Sequence record: PZ534534.1
Source: a phage
DNA length: 64,000 nt
Reading direction: 5' to 3' (one strand)
In this document: positions 5,394-46,040 of the stretch, piece after piece
Position numbering within the stretch: position 1 is the first letter of the stretch
Layout: each line of letters opens with the position of its first letter
Notes under the pieces: model-generated
Database searches by the model: none
What the model was told of the DNA's origin: nothing
Seen by the model: the letters and a program-made list of their open reading frames with translations, nothing else
Program-made: the position numbers and the translations under genes

Positions 5394-6372
5394 TAAATGA
5401 TAGTGGCTTCGTGCAGAAATGCACGTCGAATAACTTCGTTAATTGCTGGGAAATCCGATTGCTAAACGGACAATCAGCAGCTATAATTACCCTTCCGAAC
5501 CTGTAGTAGGGAGATGTTTGAAATGAAAAATTTAGGCTTTTTAGGCTACAATCATTATTGTGCTACATACGATGGCAGAATTTACAGTCTGTATTCTAAT
5601 AAATTCCTCCATCCTAATGTGCAGAAAAAGACTGGCTATGCTATGGTAACTTTGTGCGAGGACGGTAAAAAGTTCCAAGTGCTCGTTCACAGAGTGATTG
5701 CTATGACTTTTGTTGATAATGACAATCCCAGCGTGAAAACTCAAGTAAACCACCTAGATGGTAATAAGTTGAATAACGCCGCATGGAACCTTGAGTGGAC
5801 AACGCCTGAGGAAAACACACATCACGCTCATGAAATGGGACTTAAAAAGGACTATGTCAATAAATACAGGTCCCTGGATGATGCCACTGCTCTTGAAATA
5901 TGTAGGCTGTTAGAACAAGGCGCAAGGGTAAAAGACATTTGTGAAATGTTCGGTGTCAATCAACCACTTGTAAGTGGTATAAAGAATGGCTCAGTATACC
6001 CAGATATTTCTAAAGAGTTTAACTTTAGAAAAGTGCCAACCTCTAATCGGATAAGTGAGCACAAGATAATAGGTATCTGCGAGGATCTTAGTGATAAGGT
6101 CTTGTGTGTCAATAAAATAGCTAAGAAGTGGGGAGTAAGTTTTAGTGTTGTTAAAGGAATAAAAGACCGTAAGACTTACACCTATATTTCAAACAATTAC
6201 GATTGGTAATGTAGTTCAACGACTATCCCGAGAGGGAGTAGGGCGCAAGCTTATGGCGCTCGAAAAGCGAAGCACCCTGAAATGGGTGGTGATATAGTCT
6301 ACTCTGCATGGTAACATGCAGCAGCACGTAAAGGTGCGGAAGGTGGTGTTGCGACCACCTTTGAATATAAGG
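5394..6372 (+). mobile_element. group I intron 2 (td-like) in terminase gene, carrying an HNH endonuclease ORF
   Basis: 3' core ACGACTATCCC...GGGAGTAGGG...GATATAGTCTACTCTGCATGGTAACATGCAGCAG plus P9-like hairpin AAGGTGGTgttgcgACCACCTT; the exon-3 frame opens only 2 nt before the predicted 3' splice site. Confidence 0.7.
5514..6209 (+). CDS. intron-encoded HNH homing endonuclease with C-terminal HTH
   Basis: Motifs VHRVIAMTFV...VNHLDGNKLNN...NLEWTTPEEN are the canonical HNH endonuclease signature seen in phage homing endonucleases. Confidence 0.85.
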   Translation: MFEMKNLGFLGYNHYCATYDGRIYSLYSNKFLHPNVQKKTGYAMVTLCEDGKKFQVLVHRVIAMTFVDNDNPSVKTQVNHLDGNKLNNAAWNLEWTTPEENTHHAHEMGLKKDYVNKYRSLDDATALEICRLLEQGARVKDICEMFGVNQPLVSGIKNGSVYPDISKEFNFRKVPTSNRISEHKIIGICEDLSDKVLCVNKIAKKWGVSFSVVKGIKDRKTYTYISNNYDW

Positions 6373-7180: not shown

Positions 7181-7209
7181 TTGCCAATCTTAATTAGATG
7201 TGGTACAAT
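7181..7209 (+). promoter_or_regulatory. sigma70-like promoter (TTGCCA-17-TACAAT)
   Basis: Hexamers with 17-nt spacer upstream of the portal gene. Confidence 0.5.
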
Positions 7210-13361: not shown

Positions 13362-13390
13362 TTGCTTTTGATGTATCTTTGTGGTAAAAT
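13362..13390 (+). promoter_or_regulatory. sigma70-like promoter (TTGCTT-17-TAAAAT, TGGTAAAATA family)
   Basis: -10 TAAAAT preceded by TGG; 17-nt spacer. Confidence 0.45.
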
Positions 13391-36598: not shown

Positions 36599-38089
36599 GT
36601 GGCTAAGTATGGATTGACAGAGGCTGGTTTCGTTATACCAACCCTAAATGACCTAATCGTTGAAACTAAGCAAAGCCTGATCCGTGCTTTTGGCGAAAAC
36701 TTCAACGTACAGAGTAACTCCGTTGCAGATAAGCTGACCACTATCTTCAACGAGCGAGAGTATCAACTTATTCTTATGGCAGCATCTGTATACGCATCAC
36801 AGACGCTGTATGGGGCAGAAGGTATTTACCTAGATGAGCTTCTTGGAAGACAAGGTATTTACCGAAGAGGCCGTTCTAAATCATCAGGTACCTGCCAGTT
36901 GACAATCAACACAACTGTGCCGTACAATATGATTTATGATTCCAAAACTTATACGCTGGACAGTGGCAACTTTGTTCTTAGCAACGATGTGCAAGTAGCA
37001 GGGAATCTTATTGCTCACAGAATAAATGCCCCAGACCTAAGGATTGGTAAATACAACTTTCAAATTACCAACCAGACAGATGGAAGTATCAAAACAAAAA
37101 GTCTGGTTTTAACAGATAAGTCTCTGGACTCTTCTGATCTGCCAAGCTTTTACGGAGAGATTAAGCAGTTCATTGTCGATAATACAACCCTGTTGAACGA
37201 CGATTTGATTCAGATAGATATGTTGACAGGAACGTTGTGGATAGGGTACAATTCGAATCTTGATCAAGTTGGACTTAATAGTAGAGTAGATTTCAGAGTA
37301 TCCCCGATTGTAGGGGAAAGAACTATCACACTGGATGTTATCGCTAACGAGGCGGGTGAGTTGTCAAGAGAGGCAGAAACCGTGACAACAATGTCACCTA
37401 CTCCCAGTGGATTTATCAAGCTTACCAACCGAGAAAGATTCAATGAGGGCAGGGATGTTGAGAAAGACTCAGAGTATCGCTTAAGAGCTTCCAGCACAAA
37501 ACAGTTAACATCTAAGGCTACCCGTCCTGCAATCCTTAGCGCTGTAAGCGAGGTGAAAGGTGTTGAGAAAGTGAGAGTGTTCTCCAATAACACCGATAAA
37601 ACTGATGCTAAAGGTATACCCCCTTACAAGTTCCAAGTGGTTGTGTTTGGTGGTGCAACGGAAGACATTTGCCAAGCACTTTACCAAACTATAGCCTGTA
37701 CGAACAGGACTTATGGTAATATTTTCTACGATGTCACTACATCTGACGGTCAAACTGAAAGAATTTATTACTCCAAGGCAAACACCTACCGCCTAGATGT
37801 AAGAATTACCTACTCCGGTGCTGCGCTTTCTACAACCGAAAAAGATGCCATTATAGAGGCTCTTTTGCAGGTTGTTAACGGACTGGATGTTGCAGATACG
37901 TTGTATAATATCCAATTGGTAGGTGCTGCATCTGCTGCTGTGTCAATAGGCAGATTTAATAGGCTGGTAATTCAAGTTAAATCCGTAGGAGCTTCTGATG
38001 AAGCTTACACTACAAACGATATTGTTGCGAACATGACCGAGGTGTTTGACCTCGACGAAAGTAATATAACTTTCCAACAAACTATTTAA
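36599..38089 (+). CDS. baseplate J-like protein (Mu gp47 / P2 gpJ family, putative)
   Basis: 496 aa; N-terminal block ...LYGAEGIYLDELLGRQGIYRRGRSKSSG... resembles the conserved baseplate-J signature; GTG start with GGAGGAG RBS. Confidence 0.6.
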   Translation: MAKYGLTEAGFVIPTLNDLIVETKQSLIRAFGENFNVQSNSVADKLTTIFNEREYQLILMAASVYASQTLYGAEGIYLDELLGRQGIYRRGRSKSSGTCQLTINTTVPYNMIYDSKTYTLDSGNFVLSNDVQVAGNLIAHRINAPDLRIGKYNFQITNQTDGSIKTKSLVLTDKSLDSSDLPSFYGEIKQFIVDNTTLLNDDLIQIDMLTGTLWIGYNSNLDQVGLNSRVDFRVSPIVGERTITLDVIANEAGELSREAETVTTMSPTPSGFIKLTNRERFNEGRDVEKDSEYRLRASSTKQLTSKATRPAILSAVSEVKGVEKVRVFSNNTDKTDAKGIPPYKFQVVVFGGATEDICQALYQTIACTNRTYGNIFYDVTTSDGQTERIYYSKANTYRLDVRITYSGAALSTTEKDAIIEALLQVVNGLDVADTLYNIQLVGAASAAVSIGRFNRLVIQVKSVGASDEAYTTNDIVANMTEVFDLDESNITFQQTI

Positions 38090-38100
38090 GGCGGCGAGAT

Positions 38101-38787
38101 ATGGCAGAGATTAAGTCGGATGTTAACCACATCCACACTCTGCCAGATTTTGTTCAGGGAGGTCTTGACTACCTGCCTGGAGATTTTCTGGCTGAGAAGG
38201 TTAATTTAGTCACATTCTTAACCGTATACCTTAAAAGGTTGGAGGATGTTGATAAGATGCTGGTAGGTTTGGCTGAAGGAAGATTGCTTAACAATGCCAG
38301 CGGAAGATACCTTGACGAAGTTGGTAATCAACTTGGTATTCTTAGGAATGGACTTTCAGATGCTGATTTTCGTGCCACACTAATTATTCAGCAGGCCGCA
38401 GCATCAAGGGGCGGGACTCGCGAAGATGTCATCTCCACCTTGCGACAATTGTTCGGAAGAGACAATTTCGATACGTGGAAAGGAGACAACTTCAGGTTTG
38501 ACATAAATATTAGAAAAACTTGCTTTGACATATTGCAGTCTATCGATCAGATCTTAGATATGCTACCATTACCTTGTCATTTGCGTCTTACAGAATCGCA
38601 AGGGCAAGCTTTTGGTTTTGAAGGGGACTCTACAGCTCTTGGCTTCGGATCAGTGTGGGAAGAAAACCAATTCGGAGTTGGTGGGCTGGCTACTTTGCTG
38701 TATGTTCCTGACGTAAGACCTGATTGGGACACCACAACCATTTATTGTGAAAGTATTACAGTAAACGCAACTAGACAGGAGGGTTAA
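38101..38787 (+). CDS. baseplate wedge protein (P2 gpI / Mu gp48-like, putative)
   Basis: 228 aa immediately after baseplate J-like gene, conserved gene order. Confidence 0.45.
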   Translation: MAEIKSDVNHIHTLPDFVQGGLDYLPGDFLAEKVNLVTFLTVYLKRLEDVDKMLVGLAEGRLLNNASGRYLDEVGNQLGILRNGLSDADFRATLIIQQAAASRGGTREDVISTLRQLFGRDNFDTWKGDNFRFDINIRKTCFDILQSIDQILDMLPLPCHLRLTESQGQAFGFEGDSTALGFGSVWEENQFGVGGLATLLYVPDVRPDWDTTTIYCESITVNATRQEG

Positions 38788-40859
38788 TGGCAACAGCTAT
38801 TTTTAAACCTTACCGTGATTACTCTACAATGGCTGCACGGTTTCATTACCGCACAGTTCAGGATACTGCCGTTCCTGGTAGGGATTATAATCATGTTGAG
38901 GGTGATGTAACTATCCCAATTGGGGCAACCAGTATTGAGATCCCAGTGGAAATTGTTGACAAATTACCCAACAGGTTGCCAAGAAGCTTCTTTATGGAGT
39001 TTTCATCAAAATCTCAAGGGGTGATGATTGGAACACAAAGGGCGAAATGTACAATAGTTTCAGATGAGAATCTTGACAGGATATCTTGGGATACTGTTGA
39101 GGAGAGAATGTTTCACCCAAGGTATTGGGTTACAACTACTCAGCAGACTGAAAGTACCTGTATTGTTGCAGATAACAACTGTTGTATTAACCGTTTAGTG
39201 TCAAGAACATATGGAGGTATGGCTGGGTGCATTTGGGAAACAGTTGACAAGTATGACCATTTCGGTATTGGGTTTGATGATCACTATGAGATGAGAAACA
39301 CCAAGCTTTGGTTCAGAATGTCAATAACCAATGCCAGCAACTTCTCCACCCCTGAAAAGATGATTATGACTGTAGACCTTGTTGATGGCACAATCATCTA
39401 TGTTCCTTTAGCTCAATATGCTGTCAGCATCTCAGAGGATAAGAATGTTGCAGAGATTCATATTGATTTCGAGGACTGCGTCGGGATGGATCAGAACAAC
39501 AACATGATGGGTGTTGATCCTCGACAGGTGAGAAGGATTTTAATACCGCTTATGCCTAAAGACTGGGTAAGTAATAGCACAGACCCGAGAACGGAAAATG
39601 TAGAGTGTGAGTTGCGCCTAGATCTGCTCCAGCCAGACACAGGCTGGAAAATGATGCAACTTAACAATATTCAGGTTAAAGAGCACGACGTTGGGATCTG
39701 CACCGCATATGACGATATGTGGAACGTATCTCCTTTAAGGGTGTTGAACAATATCAAGCGTCTGGGCTATACCGGAACCATAAACCATTATGTTGGTATG
39801 AGTCATTATTATGACTACACATGGTCAGGAACCCAATGGTCTATAAACAGAACAGGGGCGCTAAACGCTGCAGCTTATAAATGGCATGATGATTTTATGT
39901 ACAATGCCAAACGACATAACTTCGACGTTATGCAATCTGTAAGTTTTGAGCTTTTCAGCGATGCCTGCCCGTTGGAATGGACCCAAAGAGACTGGAACGA
40001 TAACTACGCTAAAACAGGGTATACACCCTGTAGCTACCTCCTGTCTCCAACCATTGAAGAGGGTATGAATTTCCTTACTGCAGTATTTAAGAATTTTGCA
40101 TCAGCCGCTATGAGAAACAACCTGCCAGTGATTATGCAGGTTGGTGAACCGTGGTGGTGGTACAATACCGATACTCGTAGACCTTGTATTTATGATTACC
40201 CTACAAAGCAGGCGTTTTATGATGAGACAGGTGAGTATGCATTAGATATTGGGACTATTGACGATCCTAAAACTGGCGGTGTTTACGACAAGTATGTAGC
40301 ATTTTGTCGTGGTAAGCTTGGCGCTCGTATTGCGGCCATTTCAAAGGCAATAAAGGCACACGCTGCATCAGCTCAGATGACAGCTCTGCTGTTTTTCCCA
40401 ACCATTATGGAAACAGAGCTTACGCAAAAGCTGAACCTTGCTGACCAATATAAAAAAGAAGCAGGTGCTCTTGATTTCTTCTGCACCGAGTGCTACGATT
40501 GGGTGATGCAGGGAGGTATTGAAAAGGCAAAAGAGTCTGTAAACATACCTATCGTTAAGTTAGGTTGGCAACCGTCTGAAATACAATACCTTGCAGGGTT
40601 CGTTCCTAGTAAAGAGCTTGCTCCGGTATATGGCTACGACCCAACCAGGAATTACCAAGAATTTTTATGGAGATGTATCTGCGGAAACATGGCAACCATA
40701 GAGTATAGATACCCTGAGGTAAAACAGTATGTGTGGGCATACCCGCAAGTAATGTCTGACAGCATCACTGTTACAGCCAGAGATTCTACCGTGCTTCATA
40801 TGGGGCAGGTTGCTCTGAAAGGGTATGTAGAAGATGTTGTCCCTCCAGACTTCTCATAA
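38787..40859 (+). CDS. tail fibre/spike protein with N-terminal Calx-beta-like domain and putative glycosidase-like C-terminal domain
   Basis: N-terminal pattern DYNHVEGDVTIPIGATSIEIPVEIVDKLPN resembles Calx-beta; Trp-rich C-terminal region (QVGEPWWWYNTD). Confidence 0.4.
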   Translation: MATAIFKPYRDYSTMAARFHYRTVQDTAVPGRDYNHVEGDVTIPIGATSIEIPVEIVDKLPNRLPRSFFMEFSSKSQGVMIGTQRAKCTIVSDENLDRISWDTVEERMFHPRYWVTTTQQTESTCIVADNNCCINRLVSRTYGGMAGCIWETVDKYDHFGIGFDDHYEMRNTKLWFRMSITNASNFSTPEKMIMTVDLVDGTIIYVPLAQYAVSISEDKNVAEIHIDFEDCVGMDQNNNMMGVDPRQVRRILIPLMPKDWVSNSTDPRTENVECELRLDLLQPDTGWKMMQLNNIQVKEHDVGICTAYDDMWNVSPLRVLNNIKRLGYTGTINHYVGMSHYYDYTWSGTQWSINRTGALNAAAYKWHDDFMYNAKRHNFDVMQSVSFELFSDACPLEWTQRDWNDNYAKTGYTPCSYLLSPTIEEGMNFLTAVFKNFASAAMRNNLPVIMQVGEPWWWYNTDTRRPCIYDYPTKQAFYDETGEYALDIGTIDDPKTGGVYDKYVAFCRGKLGARIAAISKAIKAHAASAQMTALLFFPTIMETELTQKLNLADQYKKEAGALDFFCTECYDWVMQGGIEKAKESVNIPIVKLGWQPSEIQYLAGFVPSKELAPVYGYDPTRNYQEFLWRCICGNMATIEYRYPEVKQYVWAYPQVMSDSITVTARDSTVLHMGQVALKGYVEDVVPPDFS

Positions 40860-40871
40860 TCAGGAGATAAA

Positions 40872-41912
40872 ATGTCAAAACCTAGTTTTCCATTAGAGAT
40901 TTGGGCAGAGGAGGATCAGGTTCTGCCTAACACCCACAGACAGAACAGGCTACGCCCGATTGATGATTTGTGGAGAAAAGGTTGGGATCTTGGTCAAAAG
41001 CCATCCTGTGAAGAACTTAACTATATTTTCAATATGCTCGGAACTTGGGCAAAATACATTGCTGACGAGCAGATCCCCGCTCAAGAAGGCCGTTATCTGG
41101 TACGTGATAATAACTTGAGCGATCTTTTGAACATCCCTGTTGCCCGTAGAAACCTTGGGATTATCACTAAGGAAGAGGCAGACGCCAGGTATGTAAAAGT
41201 TACAGGTGATACAATGACAGGCCCCTTGGGGTTGCAACGTATCAACTTTAAAGCTGCCGAGACAGATAAGGCTTGGATAGAGACAACTATTGGCCCAGAT
41301 AAGACAACTCTCGACTTTGGGTTAAGTGATAATACCGGGTCGTTTGATGATGGTGGTACATCTACAGTAGATGCGTTTCGTTGGAGATTCCAGCCAACTC
41401 AGCCGGATATTAATCCAGAGTTCACTTTGATGTACCTTAACGCGATCACGGCTAATCGTGCGCTGTTGAAAGTGGTAGGCAATGTTGAAGTTGTCGATAA
41501 CATGAGGTGCAATAACCTTACTATCAGCAATACAGCAACATTCACCAACTGTAATGTGGCTAGTCAGTTGACGGCTGGGTCAGTATATGTTAATGGTGGT
41601 GCAAGTTGTGACAGTATGGTTGTAAGAAGCCAGCACTGTGTTGTCGGTAACAGAAATGTGGTGCGCTCCGTGAATGGAGTGACGGCTAACGGTAACGGTG
41701 ATGTAACGATCACTATCCCGCAGACAGGTGTGCAAGACATCAGAATCGGTGCAAGACTTGTGGACGGCGTTTCTGAATCTCCAATCCGCAACGGCTACGT
41801 TGTCACAGGCTGGCATTTCGGTGACAAAAAAGAGATGCGTGGTTCAACCTACTGGGCAGGACCTTTACAAAAACTTGTAAATGGTCAATGGATCACTGTT
41901 AATTATGCATAG
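40872..41912 (+). CDS. tail fibre protein (paralogue A)
   Basis: 346 aa; paralogous to 42927..43970 (same N-terminal PLEIWA.EDQVL and C-terminal QKLVNGQWIT..YA ends); followed by a Tfa chaperone gene. Confidence 0.6.
   Translation: MSKPSFPLEIWAEEDQVLPNTHRQNRLRPIDDLWRKGWDLGQKPSCEELNYIFNMLGTWAKYIADEQIPAQEGRYLVRDNNLSDLLNIPVARRNLGIITKEEADARYVKVTGDTMTGPLGLQRINFKAAETDKAWIETTIGPDKTTLDFGLSDNTGSFDDGGTSTVDAFRWRFQPTQPDINPEFTLMYLNAITANRALLKVVGNVEVVDNMRCNNLTISNTATFTNCNVASQLTAGSVYVNGGASCDSMVVRSQHCVVGNRNVVRSVNGVTANGNGDVTITIPQTGVQDIRIGARLVDGVSESPIRNGYVVTGWHFGDKKEMRGSTYWAGPLQKLVNGQWITVNYA
41868..41897 (+). repeat. 30-bp direct repeat copy 1 (3' end of fibre paralogue A)
   Basis: CAAAAACTTGTAAATGGTCAATGGATCACT identical to 43926..43955. 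Confidence 0.9.
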
Positions 41913-41926
41913 ATCGGAGGACTAGC

Positions 41927-42511
41927 ATGAAAATACTTCAAGAGTTTAAACTTTACCAACCGGGATCTGGCGAATACTACTCCAACAAGGAAACCAAGGA
42001 GCTGACCCCTCAAGAGGTCGAGGATTACACCGCATACACTGGGTATTTTTTACGTAATGATGATGGTGATTGGTATGTGCAGTCACGAACATTACGACAA
42101 GAAAATCCAGGGTGTATCTTCCTACTTGTTGACGAGAAGGGAATTCTTAAGACATCTACAGAAGAACCTGATGCCTTATGGCCTGCTCCAGGTCTTCGTG
42201 TGGTTATCGCCAAAAAAGAAGAGGTACCAGAAAACATTATGCTTCACCACGACGCTTTGCGTTTAGTTGGTGATGAATTTGTCACAGACAATGAATTCTT
42301 TGTTCAACAGGCAGAGGGTGTCATAGAGACAGAACTTGCTTGGGCTACTGCTAGAATTGGTGCCTATCAAGACATGATTGACCTTGAATATGATCTTACT
42401 GATGACCAGAAACGTAACATCAGAGATTTGAAAATGTACAGGGTAAAACTTCTTGAAATAGATACATCTAAAGCCCCTGACATTTTCTTCCCGGAGCGAC
42501 CTACCCTCTAA
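41927..42511 (+). CDS. tail fibre assembly protein (Tfa chaperone)
   Basis: C-terminal block DQKRNIRDLKMYRVKLLEIDTSKAPDIFFPERP matches the conserved Tfa C-terminal signature (W..YR..L..vD.s.AP.I.WP..P). Confidence 0.7.
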   Translation: MKILQEFKLYQPGSGEYYSNKETKELTPQEVEDYTAYTGYFLRNDDGDWYVQSRTLRQENPGCIFLLVDEKGILKTSTEEPDALWPAPGLRVVIAKKEEVPENIMLHHDALRLVGDEFVTDNEFFVQQAEGVIETELAWATARIGAYQDMIDLEYDLTDDQKRNIRDLKMYRVKLLEIDTSKAPDIFFPERPTL

Positions 42512-42522
42512 GAGGAGGTGTT

Positions 42523-42837
42523 GTGGAGTTGGATTTGGCGGCATTGTACGGTATCTGCATGGGTACCGTTGTCCCGATCTGTGTATGGGCTTTCAACCAG
42601 TGGCACACCAAATGGAAAGGCATTTCCAAGAGGTTGGATGAGCTGGAGAAAGACCTCATCTTAGTGAAAAACAGTATGGTTACAAAAGATAGACTTGATT
42701 CCGTTATCGAGACTCGGTTAAGCAAGCTAGAGGCCGATATTAACGACCTTAAGCAGGATGTCAGGACAGATGTCTCCGGCATCCGAGCTGATGTACAAAA
42801 GATTTTGCACATGCTCGTAGAGCATAGTAAAAGGTAA
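42523..42837 (+). CDS. small membrane protein (single TM helix plus coiled coil) embedded in the fibre locus
   Basis: GTG start with AAGAGGAGG RBS; TM segment LAALYGICMGTVVPICVWAF; own terminator downstream. Confidence 0.5.
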   Translation: MELDLAALYGICMGTVVPICVWAFNQWHTKWKGISKRLDELEKDLILVKNSMVTKDRLDSVIETRLSKLEADINDLKQDVRTDVSGIRADVQKILHMLVEHSKR

Positions 42838-42846
42838 ACAAAGGTC

Positions 42847-42880
42847 AGAACGGAAAGGACTCCGTTCTTGCATTTTGTTC
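42847..42880 (+). terminator. rho-independent terminator
   Basis: Hairpin AGAACGGAaaggacTCCGTTCT followed by TGCATTTTGTTC. Confidence 0.55.
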
Positions 42881-42896
42881 TCTAAAGTGTTAAAAT
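42868..42896 (+). promoter_or_regulatory. sigma70-like promoter (TTGCAT-17-TAAAAT) for the second fibre cassette
   Basis: Hexamers with 17-nt spacer; overlaps the terminator tail. Confidence 0.45.
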
Positions 42897-42926
42897 AGTC
42901 CTAAGGAATTTTCTCAGGAGAACGTG

Positions 42927-43970
42927 ATGACTAAACCAGTTATCCCTCTTGATATTTGGGCCAATCAGGATGTTGTGCTTGAAAATACGGGAGAGTTGAA
43001 TAAATCTCAACCAAAAAAAGAAGAGAGATTGAAAGGTTGGGATATGACACAAAGAATGGCATGTGAAGTTGTTAACTTTGAACTTCACATGCTTTCTGCG
43101 TGGTTGAAGCATTTAACAGAAGATGTTGTCCCAGGATGGGATAATAGATTCTTAAGGGTCACTAATAATCTAGCAGACGTTCCAGACAAAGCTGCTGCAC
43201 GTCAAGTTCTCAATGTATACTCACCTGAAGAAATGGACGATCTATATGTTGACAAGTCTGGAGACATAATGACTCAGACTCAAACTTTAGGTCTTCAAAG
43301 AATCGAGTTTGCATCTGCGTCAACAGACAGTGCGGCAATATATACCACCATAACTCCAGACAAGACGACGATGGATTTCTGGATTATGGACAACATCGGT
43401 GGTGCTGACGGCACAGACCTTGATGATCCTTCTCACCAAATAGATGGGTTCCGTTGGAGATTTCAACCTTCTGGTGGGCAGCCTGTGTTTTCAGCTATGA
43501 AGCTCAATGCTATAACTGCCAACCGTGCAAGACTGGCTATCCAAGGAAATCTTGAATGCAACGATGCAAAAAGTTCCTCTGCAAATGCCAATGCGGTCAC
43601 GATACCAAGAGCCACTGTTAATGGACAACAATCCTGCGGAAGCGCTCAAATAGGTGGAAGAGTTGATTGTAACGATGAAACCGTCAGGGGCCAATATGCA
43701 ACAGTTGGTGGAAGAAACGTGGTCCGCAGGGTAAATGGTAACGGCGCAGACAGTAGCGGTAACCTTACTATCCCTATGCCTAGCAGAGGGGTTGATGATG
43801 TAAGGATAGCAAACCGTTTTAAAACCACCTACAGAGAGTCAAGAGTCTACCCTGGACATGTGATGTGCTCTGGTAACTACGCTTATAAACACCCTTATCA
43901 AGGTGATTACTGGACAGGTGCTATCCAAAAACTTGTAAATGGTCAATGGATCACTATATCTTATGCTTAA
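42927..43970 (+). CDS. tail fibre protein (paralogue B)
   Basis: 348 aa; ATG at 42927 with AGGAGAA RBS; paralogous to 40872..41912. Confidence 0.6.
   Translation: MTKPVIPLDIWANQDVVLENTGELNKSQPKKEERLKGWDMTQRMACEVVNFELHMLSAWLKHLTEDVVPGWDNRFLRVTNNLADVPDKAAARQVLNVYSPEEMDDLYVDKSGDIMTQTQTLGLQRIEFASASTDSAAIYTTITPDKTTMDFWIMDNIGGADGTDLDDPSHQIDGFRWRFQPSGGQPVFSAMKLNAITANRARLAIQGNLECNDAKSSSANANAVTIPRATVNGQQSCGSAQIGGRVDCNDETVRGQYATVGGRNVVRRVNGNGADSSGNLTIPMPSRGVDDVRIANRFKTTYRESRVYPGHVMCSGNYAYKHPYQGDYWTGAIQKLVNGQWITISYA
43926..43955 (+). repeat. 30-bp direct repeat copy 2 (3' end of fibre paralogue B)
   Basis: Identical to 41868..41897. Confidence 0.9.
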
Positions 43971-43981
43971 AAAGAGGGTAA

Positions 43982-44248
43982 ATGAAACTAACTCAGTTTT
44001 TATGGGGACTGGTTGCGGCATCTGATGACCCTACGAAAGTGTCCCAATCTAAGCTATGGTCGAACATAGGCATGGCGGTGATGACTGGGGGGTTTATTCA
44101 TATGGGGGATAATGATACGCTTCCTGAATGGTATGCGTGGATATACGCGCCTTCAGTAGCTTGCCCCCAGCTTATTAGCAAATTCATCTCGCTCCGGTGG
44201 GGTTGCCAGCACCCTGACCACGTTAAAAACGAAGAGCAAAAAGCTTAA
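43982..44248 (+). CDS. hypothetical small protein downstream of fibre paralogue B
   Basis: 88 aa with hydrophobic N-terminal segment; occupies the position where a fibre chaperone would be expected but lacks the Tfa signature. Confidence 0.35.
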   Translation: MKLTQFLWGLVAASDDPTKVSQSKLWSNIGMAVMTGGFIHMGDNDTLPEWYAWIYAPSVACPQLISKFISLRWGCQHPDHVKNEEQKA

Positions 44249-44257
44249 GGAGAAATC

Positions 44258-46003
44258 ATGGCGCAAGACATGACAAGCTTTGAGCAGGCGGTAGATCAAG
44301 TAATTGTTGATTCTGAACGTTTGCACCTGATTGTCAACGGTAACGCTGTGGATGAAGTTGTCGTAGAGGATGGGACCACCATCCCTACGGTACGAAAAGC
44401 CATGCTTGACACCCTTTATTTTAAAACGCCACCGATCCCTTGGGCGTATGGTGCATCCACAACAGTTTTTAACCAGCTGTACGAGTTTAAAGGGGACACA
44501 GGCCCTCAGTGGTGGTACGCTCCCGCAGCATCAAAATCTAACCCGGTTAGAATGCCAGCAGATCCTTCACAATCTCCAAACTGGAGATTATATACCGATT
44601 CTGCAGTAATGGCAAAATACTACGCAAAACTTAACAGTCCGAGGTTCGAAGGTGACCCGCGAGTACCTACGCCTCCAATGGACGACAAATCCGAGTCTAT
44701 AGCAAACACAGAGTTTGTTGTTGACTATGTGGATAGCATATTTGAAGCCATGGAGGGAATGAAAGTTACTGTAGGATCTTTGGTGGTAAAAGGTCTTACA
44801 GAACTTGCTAACACTATAGTTGGTGGCACACTCACCTTACATGGGCCTGTTAATGGAGCAGATTCTACTGCACGCTTCAGGAACCTAATCCTCACGGCAA
44901 ATACTTCTACACTTACTTTTGCGTGGAGTGATCCTAAGCATGCAGACTGGAGAAGCACAGAGCTGCAACCTCATGAAGTGTCCACCCACAGGGTTATAGC
45001 TGACACTATAACTTCTGGGAAACCAGTGGCTAATAATAACGATGTGCATTTTGATGGTCTAGGTAATAACTTTTTTGACTACGTGTACATTCGTGGTAAT
45101 GCCATGAAGGCAGCAACCGAACCGACATTGCAGGTAGATGGAACCACCAGGGTTAAGAACCTTGAGGTGACAGGCACTGTTACAGGGATAACCTACTCTG
45201 TCGATGGCACCATGATTTACCCTAGCTATATTGAAAGCACGGGGGACGCATTAATAAATGGTGATTTAGAAGTTGGCGGATCTGTAGTTATTCGAGGTAC
45301 AGCCTCTATCCAAAACATAGCTCTGAATACCCTAAGAGTCAATGAGCGTGCAACTTTTGAAGGGGAAGGGCTTACAGCCAACAAAGGTGTAATTACCGAG
45401 CTGACAACCACTACTTTAACTGCAACAACTGCAAACTCTGAAAACTGCAACGTTACCAGAAACTTGCAGGTAAATGGAGATGTTAGTTTAAACGCAGCAG
45501 GGACGGGCACCACCTACCTTCACAACCTTGAAATATCCGGCACAGTGACTGGGTGGCTGCCAGACTTCTCTAATGTCAACTTTGTTTGTAATGGCATTAA
45601 CTCCAGTGGCAAGATAACCACCTCTCAAGAAATTGAGGCGGGTAAAACCATTACTGCCCCTACTTTCCACGCAGGAAAGGTAGATTTTGATTTAGAGGAG
45701 GTTGACGCGTCCAGTGGGACATGGACACCTAACGGGCAGGCCAGTATGTATGTTGTCCACGCGAAAGGGGATTTTACAATAGGACAATGGCCTGGTACAT
45801 CAGCGGAAGATAAACCTTATCCATTCACTGCGGTTATCTATGTCATTCAGGATGCTGTAGGTCACAACGTGACTTTGCACGATAAGTATGCTATCCTGTC
45901 GGCAACGCCTGTTATTAATAACAAGGCTAATAGTGTTACCTTGCTGCAATTAACATATTGTGGTGTTGGTGATATCGTAGACGTAGTAATTGCACAACGT
46001 TAA
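44258..46003 (+). CDS. tail fibre/tailspike protein
   Basis: 581 aa, Thr/Gly/Asn-rich beta-rich sequence with repeated ...TG.V.G... segments typical of fibre shafts. Confidence 0.5.
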   Translation: MAQDMTSFEQAVDQVIVDSERLHLIVNGNAVDEVVVEDGTTIPTVRKAMLDTLYFKTPPIPWAYGASTTVFNQLYEFKGDTGPQWWYAPAASKSNPVRMPADPSQSPNWRLYTDSAVMAKYYAKLNSPRFEGDPRVPTPPMDDKSESIANTEFVVDYVDSIFEAMEGMKVTVGSLVVKGLTELANTIVGGTLTLHGPVNGADSTARFRNLILTANTSTLTFAWSDPKHADWRSTELQPHEVSTHRVIADTITSGKPVANNNDVHFDGLGNNFFDYVYIRGNAMKAATEPTLQVDGTTRVKNLEVTGTVTGITYSVDGTMIYPSYIESTGDALINGDLEVGGSVVIRGTASIQNIALNTLRVNERATFEGEGLTANKGVITELTTTTLTATTANSENCNVTRNLQVNGDVSLNAAGTGTTYLHNLEISGTVTGWLPDFSNVNFVCNGINSSGKITTSQEIEAGKTITAPTFHAGKVDFDLEEVDASSGTWTPNGQASMYVVHAKGDFTIGQWPGTSAEDKPYPFTAVIYVIQDAVGHNVTLHDKYAILSATPVINNKANSVTLLQLTYCGVGDIVDVVIAQR

Positions 46004-46012
46004 TATATATCT

Positions 46013-46040
46013 AACCGCTCCTGACGGGGCGGTTTTCTTA
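46013..46040 (+). terminator. putative terminator
   Basis: Hairpin AACCGCtcctgacgggGCGGTT followed by TTCTTATCT. Confidence 0.4.

Follow-up and report, generated by a model that had tools for sequence, protein, structure and literature searches.

Two paralogous short tail fibre genes and their shared 3′ tract in the fibre module of an rV5-like phage

We analysed a 64,000-nucleotide (nt) stretch of phage DNA (record PZ534534.1; hereafter the window) in which two related tail fibre genes, here called A and B, lie between positions 40872 and 44248 and contain an identical 30-base-pair (bp) tract near their 3′ ends. The 4.1 kb around this locus matched 117 phage records at 92–99.9% DNA identity, almost all of them Vequintavirus. 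Identity to Escherichia phage DrSchubert, a BASEL phage, was 99.9%, with 4 nt differences within 40500–44600, and rV5 aligned at 98.1% DNA identity over 4.1 kb as one collinear piece with five genes in common. On the basis of this near-identical sequence and identical gene order, we assigned the window to Vequintavirus, as an rV5-like myophage, and the locus to the rV5 short-tail-fibre module gp33–gp32–gp31–gp30–gp29. The features of the locus are as follows (aa, amino acids; ORF, open reading frame).

40872..41912, + strand: short tail fibre paralogue A, orthologue of rV5 gp33, 346 aa (ORF, annotation of relatives)
41368..41395, + strand: mid-gene patch in A (VDAFRWRFQP), 28 nt, 86% identical to the B copy
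41868..41897, + strand: 30-bp tract, copy 1, encoding QKLVNGQWIT, the terminal motif of the fibre tip (exact identity)
41927..42511, + strand: tail fibre assembly chaperone, orthologue of rV5 gp32, 194 aa (Pfam, PHROG)
42523..42837, + strand: 104-aa protein, orthologue of rV5 gp31 (ORF, PHROG 5345, hydropathy)
42847..42868, + strand: terminator-like hairpin that would close the upstream transcription unit (terminator scan, folding, stem covariation)
42868..42897, + strand: predicted late promoter of B, 'P030' of rV5 (sequence, published prediction, conservation)
42927..43970, + strand: short tail fibre paralogue B, orthologue of rV5 gp30, 347 aa (ORF, homology to A)
43441..43468, + strand: mid-gene patch, B copy (similarity to the A patch)
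43926..43955, + strand: 30-bp tract, copy 2 (exact identity to copy 1)
43982..44248, + strand: 88-aa small protein, orthologue of rV5 gp29, annotated as a membrane protein (PHROG 1322)

This is an ordinary locus, carried by well over a hundred sequenced phages. In annotated relatives the order runs baseplate wedge, baseplate protein, 690-aa fibre protein, short tail fibre, tail fibre chaperone, hypothetical protein of 104 aa, short tail fibre, 88-aa membrane protein, 581-aa fibre and a very large immunoglobulin-like fibre. The A protein was at least 98% identical in 116 records and matched proteins annotated as 'short tail fiber' or 'tail fiber' in Vequintavirus genomes at 98–100%; the B protein was at least 95% identical in 116 records. 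Statements on collinearity below refer to the records examined among the 117 matching genomes. Between 16 and 21 GenBank records labelled 'Campylobacter phage', with C. jejuni as host (MG065635–MG065690), also share at least 98% identity with the E. coli rV5-like phages here; these are probably mislabelled or contaminant genomes.

The gene pair, its chaperone and the promoter have already been published. In rV5, gp30, gp32 and gp33 were found in virions by mass spectrometry, gp30 and gp33 were reported to be 42.3% identical, recognition of two lipopolysaccharide (LPS) chemotypes was suggested, and an HHpred similarity to T4 gp12 was described (Kropinski 2013, PMC3606486). A later paper ascribed to the Vequintavirinae sensu stricto a pair of paralogous short tail fibres together with a chaperone, with homology to Mu GpS/GpU, and stated that these fibre and chaperone genes show no considerable allelic variation (Maffei 2021, PMC8594841).

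Consistent with these reports, we found that A and B are 43% identical at the protein level along their full length (E = 2e-94). The homology reaches far past the 30-bp repeat, which confirms the original prediction that the two genes are paralogues. The predicted length of A (346 aa, 40872–41912) was also correct, and that of B (348 aa) was probably one residue too long. The GTG at 42924 is not conserved, its place being taken by GCG in rV5 and in Gotham, and the ATG three bases on, at 42927, is the start chosen in every GenBank record. B therefore most likely begins at 42927, with 347 aa. Similarity between the two proteins does not follow the pattern originally described, of shared ends around a divergent central receptor-binding region. 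It is a mosaic, with blocks of 55–70% identity at alignment columns 111–150, 191–210, 261–290 and 331–346 and low blocks of 20–35% identity at columns 51–100, 211–260 and 291–330, and by homology to Mu GpS the receptor-binding part would be the C-terminal ~60 residues.

The N termini of both proteins are homologous to the docking domain of the phiTE short tail fibre (residues ~1–110 of PDB 9cuy). Residues 1–108 of A matched 9cuy at E = 1.4e-19 and the N terminus of B at E = 1.1e-9, and a profile built from A, B and outgroup fibres reached E = 6.5e-26; 9zd7 was likewise among the structure matches that bear on the domains of the two proteins. In the published phiTE structure, residues 3–92 of this fibre form a joint that docks on the baseplate wedge; phi92 has one homologous fibre, fibre III (gp147), which is attached to the wedge protein gp145. 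At the other end of the protein, residues 286–343 of A matched the Mu GpS tip in 5yvq, which is a complex of the Mu fibre with TfaMu (E = 1.7e-6 with the full protein, 2e-4 with the tip alone), and the same profile matched 5yvq at E = 8e-10 and Mu S′ (8ju3) at E = 9e-5, making A homologous to GpS-type tips. The sequence QKLVNGQWIT, encoded by the 30-bp tract, aligns with VQKNINGTWYNV of Mu S, IQYCINGTWYN of Mu S′ and IQKKVNGVWVTI of phiTE. These counterparts indicate that, at the protein level, the motif is an ancient hallmark of the tip domain. The tip of A (41730–41909, residues 287–345) is ~60% identical in protein sequence to fibre tips of Phapecoctavirus and of ~52-kb Salmonella/E. coli myoviruses and looks like a widely spread receptor-binding module; the tip of B is without such relatives.

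Directly 3′ of A, beginning 14 nt past its stop codon, lies the Tfa-type chaperone gene that the original prediction had placed there. Its product matched Pfam Caudo_TAP (PF02413) with 45.6 bits against a gathering cutoff of 22.1 (E = 1e-11) and PHROG 136 'tail fiber assembly protein' with E = 1e-36; a sequence search of the PDB with this Tfa gave no meaningful match. By family and position it is a tail fibre assembly protein of the lambda Tfa/Mu GpU type.

The 30-bp identity between 41868–41897 and 43926–43955 is exact and does not extend further. It lies inside a 62-nt stretch with 84% identity, and in a self-comparison the only other notable direct repeat was the 28-nt mid-gene patch at 86% (41368–41395 and 43441–43468). 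When both amino-acid sequences were held fixed and codons were drawn from the usage of the structural genes of the window, an exact run of at least 30 nt arose in 3 of 20,000 trials (P = 1.5e-4). In the last 21 codons, 11 of the 13 identical residues use the same codon, compared with 41 of 130 elsewhere (Fisher P = 2.8e-4), and the run of 10 same-codon sites had a permutation P of 0.002. The shared 3′ ends noted in the original prediction are thus real, and their nucleotide identity exceeds what is expected from protein conservation. Two ideas about short shared sequences were set aside. The 3′ end had no match in 5,426 E. coli genomes, against its being a widespread prophage linker, and an N-terminal same-codon patch (codons 36–50), considered as a second anchor, was not kept in the divergent lineage L019. 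The exact 30-mer occurred in only 3 IMG/VR contigs; a protein-based IMG/VR scan recovered two of those contigs and two further ones, with 95–99% identity to B.

A protein-collection search with B yielded eight clusters from 5.8 billion sequences, including divergent Vequintavirus-like lineages, and the divergent lineages assembled from public read sets all had the gene order of the window. In L019 and L021, whose B is 78% identical to that of the window, CAAAAACTGGTCAATGGTCAGTGGATCAC is the tract sequence of A and of B alike. Both genes thus carry the same three synonymous differences from the window (CTT>CTG, GTA>GTC and CAA>CAG), and both end in GCATAA. Likewise, both tract copies of phage Aya carry AAT>AAC. 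At the Arg codon of the mid-gene patch, A and B of the window clade both have CGT, and A and B of L019–L021 both have AGA, so that the patch of L019–L021 contains a 20-nt exact run. A third clade, the uncultured L022–L024, showed a more extensive form of sharing. The last 57 codons of its A and B genes are 79–87% identical in nucleotide sequence within each genome (53 of 57 residues in L022), compared with 42–47% protein identity between the gene bodies. The B tips of this clade are 56–57% identical in nucleotides to the A tip of the window and 36–42% to its B tip, and substitutions private to L024 are common to its A and B. The boundary of the homogenised segment is a GVxD[IV]R motif, where the alignment to Mu GpS starts and where the ~60%-identical tips of Phapecoctavirus and the small Salmonella myoviruses also begin.

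These shared synonymous changes, together with the shared tip in one clade, argue for sporadic short-tract gene conversion between the paralogues, which best explains the nucleotide identity of the 30-bp tract. Conversion would also have acted at the mid-gene FRWRFQP patch and would have homogenised the whole tip in one sister clade; we call it sporadic because the tract is not identical in every lineage. That the tips of L022–L024 are alike and the bodies distinct hints that docking domain and shaft are functionally non-redundant.

Conversion between the copies can be compared with two other accounts of the tract. Selection on the nucleotides themselves, for instance to preserve an RNA fold, a binding site for protein or RNA, or a translational-coupling signal, would fit an identity that goes beyond the needs of the protein, and phage Av-05 has most of the motif codons in common. 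We nevertheless consider such selection improbable. No RNA fold is common to the two 3′ ends (z-scores of −2.7 for A and −0.2 for B), and within the genus the tract changes at about the rate of its flanks (2–3 of 30 nt in FV3, compared with 8–12% nearby). The tract of the L022 clade has 7–9 synonymous differences that leave the peptide unchanged, and the sequences downstream are unlike, a Tfa gene after A and the 88-aa gene after B. The variation between tract copies and the absence of a common fold therefore favour sporadic conversion over a function at the nucleotide level. The other account is the original proposal that the conserved ends are recombination anchors for host-range switching, by which the variable receptor-binding parts of the two genes would be swapped. 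Part of this stands, since conserved patches, the 3′ end among them, are indeed sites where the paralogues recombine, and in L022–L024 the whole tip was copied across paralogue types; the tip module of A is moreover common to unrelated phage groups (~60% aa identity). Switching itself gained no support from a locus that is collinear and conserved and whose repeats are direct, and we give it a slightly smaller chance than nucleotide-level selection. There is one long identical stretch only, at the 3′ end, the next best being 28 nt at 86%, and a crossover between such direct repeats would delete Tfa, gp31 and most of B. Neither this deletion nor a chimera was present in the examined records, and no recombinant between the cassettes was found there or in 7 metagenomic contigs, all of which are collinear; no chimera was present in the eight protein clusters either. 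The low-coverage matches PDX, ECO121 2-1-1 and EC22.5-2 proved to be collinear contig or record ends, in which the second piece is a mere 48-nt cross-match of the repeat. Both genes are 95–100% protein-identical in the genus, in line with the published absence of allelic variation (Maffei 2021, PMC8594841). The window and Aya, the most divergent isolate, differ by 106 nt in each gene but by only 11 aa in the A protein and 19 aa in the B protein, which indicates that both genes are under purifying selection rather than diversification. Inverted repeats in 40000–45000 were at most 18 nt long and not placed as flanks, so that the locus does not resemble an invertible cassette of the Mu G segment or P1 C segment type, and no Gin/Cin-type invertase was found among the ORFs of 36599–46003 scanned against Pfam, all of which are baseplate, fibre, Tfa or small membrane proteins. 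The recombination events that we did observe make the copies more alike, not more diverse. Host-range switching is thus largely refuted for the sequenced population.

The 89-nt gap ahead of B contains the hairpin at 42847–42868, then a T-rich run, TTGCAT and TGTTAAAATA. The TTGCAT hexamer (42868–42873) is separated by a 17-nt spacer from TAAAAT, which reads with TGT as an extended −10 element inside TGTTAAAATA (42888–42897), and TGTTAAAATA sits 30 nt before the ATG of B. A generic sigma-70 scan found no promoter at 42868, which was recognised from the sequence itself and by comparison with the late promoters published for rV5; the same scan flagged the hairpin. The putative rV5 late promoter P030 was published as the 37-mer TTGTTCTCTAAAGTGTTAAAATAGTCCTAAGGAATTT (Table S4C of Kropinski 2013, PMC3606486), and window positions 42875–42911 match it exactly; the Gotham record carries a PhagePromoter annotation at the same site. 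Allowing one mismatch, the late-promoter motif TGGTAAAATA occurs 20 times in the window compared with 5.8 expected, with 18 of the 20 on the + strand, and exact copies at 13382, 16903, 31046 and 36557 (+) lie 5–42 nt upstream of late gene starts. Within the genus the gap is better conserved than the flanking coding DNA, and in lineages with a diverged gap TTGCATTTT, TG(T/C)TAAAATA and the hairpin loop AAGGA are invariant. By position and conservation the predicted promoter of B belongs to the late promoter class of rV5. The hairpin (ΔG −12.8, z −2.6) has a stem that covaries across lineages, both sides having changed in 4 of 6 pairs. The promoter originally predicted at 42868 is accordingly credible as a prediction. 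The enrichment and conservation of its motif and the covarying hairpin make a separate late transcription unit, running from B through gp29 and gp28 to a terminator at 46013–46034, well supported as a prediction.

We also observed a hairpin inside B, at 43058–43093 (codons ~45–56), with a perfect stem of 13 bp and a 10-nt loop followed by UUUCU (ΔG −21.4 kcal/mol, z −6.3). It is conserved in the genus apart from one mismatch in FV3 and does not occur at the corresponding place in A; the Murica record annotates it as a terminator. It might act as an attenuator within the gene or as a site of RNA processing.

Two small genes flank B. The 104-aa gene (42523–42837), which the original prediction omitted, lies between Tfa and B. 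Its product belongs to PHROG 5345, of unknown function, and has one hydrophobic segment in a hydropathy scan (residues 3–25), beyond which it showed weak, sub-threshold matches to coiled-coil-type Pfam families. The 88-aa ORF starts 11 nt past the stop codon of B, and its product is a 'membrane protein' in PHROG 1322 and in RefSeq. Avunavirus (Av-05), Seunavirus (NINP13076 and EspYZU14), Mydovirus (KpS8) and Certrevirus (PcCB7V) each have a single such fibre gene and the order short tail fibre, Tfa, ~104 aa, ~157 aa (a polytopic membrane protein), ~87 aa and next fibre. The 104-aa protein of the window is 23–33% identical to its orthologues there, and the 88-aa protein 45–57% identical to the ~87-aa orthologues. 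The 157-aa gene has no counterpart in the window, where the hairpin, the promoter and B occupy its place. Beyond the 'membrane protein' label of the 88-aa protein, no function for it or for the 104- and 157-aa proteins emerged from Pfam, NCBIfam or PHROGs.

Because its orthologues hold the same relative place in four single-fibre genera, the 88-aa gene appears to predate B, and its position next to B would be a by-product of the insertion site. This bears on the proposal that an unrelated hydrophobic protein follows B instead of a Tfa. The ORF does follow B; its occurrence in single-fibre genera means that it is not specific to B. A dedicated non-Tfa chaperone that folds B might be suspected from the 11-nt spacing, which suggests co-translation, and yet we regard this role as very improbable. 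In four genera without B the orthologues stand between the 157-aa gene and the following fibre gene, the protein is annotated as a membrane protein and has no similarity to any chaperone family, and the main text of Kropinski 2013 (PMC3606486) does not name gp29 among the proteins of the virion. The same gene order informs the origin of B. Outside the genus, every record among the matches listed had one fibre copy. A and B cluster with 97.5% bootstrap support against two outgroup lineages in an unrooted tree, in which the branch of B is longer. Among the matches listed, the closest non-Vequintavirus match to B was 39.5% identical, compared with 43% between B and A, and A was nearer to B than any phage record was. 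It is most economical to assume a duplication specific to this lineage: the ancestral single fibre gene would have been copied, B would have diverged faster, and B with its hairpin and late promoter would have been inserted where other Vequintavirinae carry the 157-aa gene, leaving the flanking 104-aa and 88-aa genes as ancestral bystanders. B might instead have been acquired horizontally, or be an ancient paralogue lost elsewhere, its similarity to A being partly due to later conversion. The longer branch of B would fit this, as would an N-terminal domain in which A is visibly nearer than B to the single fibres of other genera, and conversion patches do inflate the similarity between A and B. 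We consider such an origin unlikely, given the clustering of A with B, the greater similarity of B to A than to its best match outside the genus, and the 104–157–87 order without B that is common to four other genera, including the distant Certrevirus.

Several further observations concern these neighbouring genes. Five Vequintavirinae genera keep the small membrane trio within their tail-fibre module, Vequintavirus having lost the 157-aa member; the trio consists of a ~104-aa protein (a transmembrane segment and a region annotated as coiled-coil-like), a ~157-aa polytopic protein and a ~87-aa protein. Its members lie at 42523–42837 and 43982–44248 in the window, at 5638–6701 in L011 and at 7207–8284 in L028. 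Two of the four differences between the window and DrSchubert are T>G changes, at 44091 and 44108, which cause the substitutions V37G and Y43D within the first hydrophobic stretch of the 88-aa product. These substitutions were present in no other relative or outgroup examined, and could be adaptive changes, loss-of-function changes or sequencing errors. In the L022–L024 clade the 88-aa homologue is lengthened to 118–126 aa by an acidic, YSD-rich repetitive tail (L022 7076–7432, L023 5076–5456, L024 5067–5447), and the Tfa of that clade has 205–208 aa with an N-terminal insertion.

Taken together, the findings make it likely that the locus is a conserved Vequintavirus fibre module in which B arose by duplication, two fixed fibres are made and sporadic conversion links their genes. 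Each paralogue would consist of an N-terminal wedge-docking domain of the phiTE type followed by a shaft, with a demonstrable Mu GpS-type tip in A. Both would be built into the virion as fixed short fibres with unlike distal shafts and tips, and might provide two LPS-core or glycan specificities or occupy two baseplate positions. We infer that two fixed fibres of this kind are most likely, rather than a cassette that is turned on and off or swapped. Both tips are probably folded by the single Tfa (gp32). A terminus common to the two fibres, and in one clade a common tip, agree with this arrangement, and the tip sharing suggests that one chaperone can serve both fibres. More tentatively, conversion may keep the chaperone-facing termini of two co-expressed fibres matched to one Tfa, as a chaperone-driven concerted evolution, a possibility that we rate as doubtful. 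If it were true, tip copying between paralogues would be a natural route to reset the terminal-receptor repertoire.

Several points weigh against parts of this interpretation. A B-only profile gave no GpS match at E ≤ 1 in the PDB, a pairwise BLASTP of the B tip against GpS 440–501 gave a weak match (E = 0.002), and an AlphaFold2 monomer of B from a 10-sequence alignment was unusable (pLDDT, its model confidence score, 30.9). Because the B-only profile misses GpS and the model could not be used, the tip of B is linked to the GpS family only through its homology to A and the weak pairwise match. The tract copies differ by 1–4 nt in FV3-like phages and at 7–9 synonymous sites in the L022 clade, and the covariation that argues for conversion comes from few lineages, in keeping with sporadic events. 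The unrooted tree alone would also allow an older origin of B with loss elsewhere. Folding of B by gp32, different receptors for the two fibres and a baseplate site for each are themselves deductions, and recent receptor-mapping papers contain nothing on which of the two fibres binds what.

The original observation was therefore real and its genes were correctly recognised; its recombination idea survives only as homogenising gene conversion. The additions to the published picture are modest: the 104-aa and 88-aa genes appear to be ancestral neighbours, B to have replaced the 157-aa gene, and the paralogues to exchange tracts. Neither the 30-bp tract with its concerted 3′-end evolution nor the position of B in place of the 157-aa gene is mentioned in the Kropinski 2013 or Maffei 2021 papers. 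The natural limits of the tip, from GVxD[IV]R to QKLVNGQWIT, would be useful for engineering or predicting the receptor specificity of rV5-like therapeutic phages.

Among known systems, the gp33/gp32/gp30 genes of rV5 and the two-fibre pair of the Vequintavirinae are the same locus, with 98–100% protein identity, the same order and the same P030, and we found no structural difference between that published module and the one described here. T4 gp12, a baseplate short fibre thought to bind the LPS core, with gp57A as its chaperone, is a functional analogue. The chaperone family differs (Caudo_TAP here, gp57A in T4), and sequence searches with A, B and the profile did not recover gp12. The phiTE short tail fibre (PDB 9cuy/9mjn) and phi92 gp147 have a homologous wedge-docking domain and are likewise downward-pointing, Mu/Milano-like fibres. 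Each of those phages has a single such fibre, however, and that of phiTE has 554 aa with coiled-coil and immunoglobulin-like distal domains. In the T-even phages, short conserved motifs of gp37/gp38, the His boxes, are said to be exchange sites that move adhesin or tip segments, as Tetart et al. reportedly described in 1998. Those exchanges take place between co-infecting phages and yield new specificities, whereas here they occur within one genome and make the copies more alike. The Mu GpS/GpU system has a tip homologous to that of A, with the motif P-x-Q-K-x-[VI]-N-G-x-W, and a Caudo_TAP chaperone encoded directly downstream, and in both systems one phage has two alternative tips. In Mu, Gin-mediated inversion of the G segment between inverted repeats selects S or S′, one being expressed at a time and each having its own chaperone (S/U, S′/U′). 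Here, by contrast, there are two complete genes in direct orientation, both of whose products are in the virion (in rV5), with one chaperone gene and no flanking inverted repeats.

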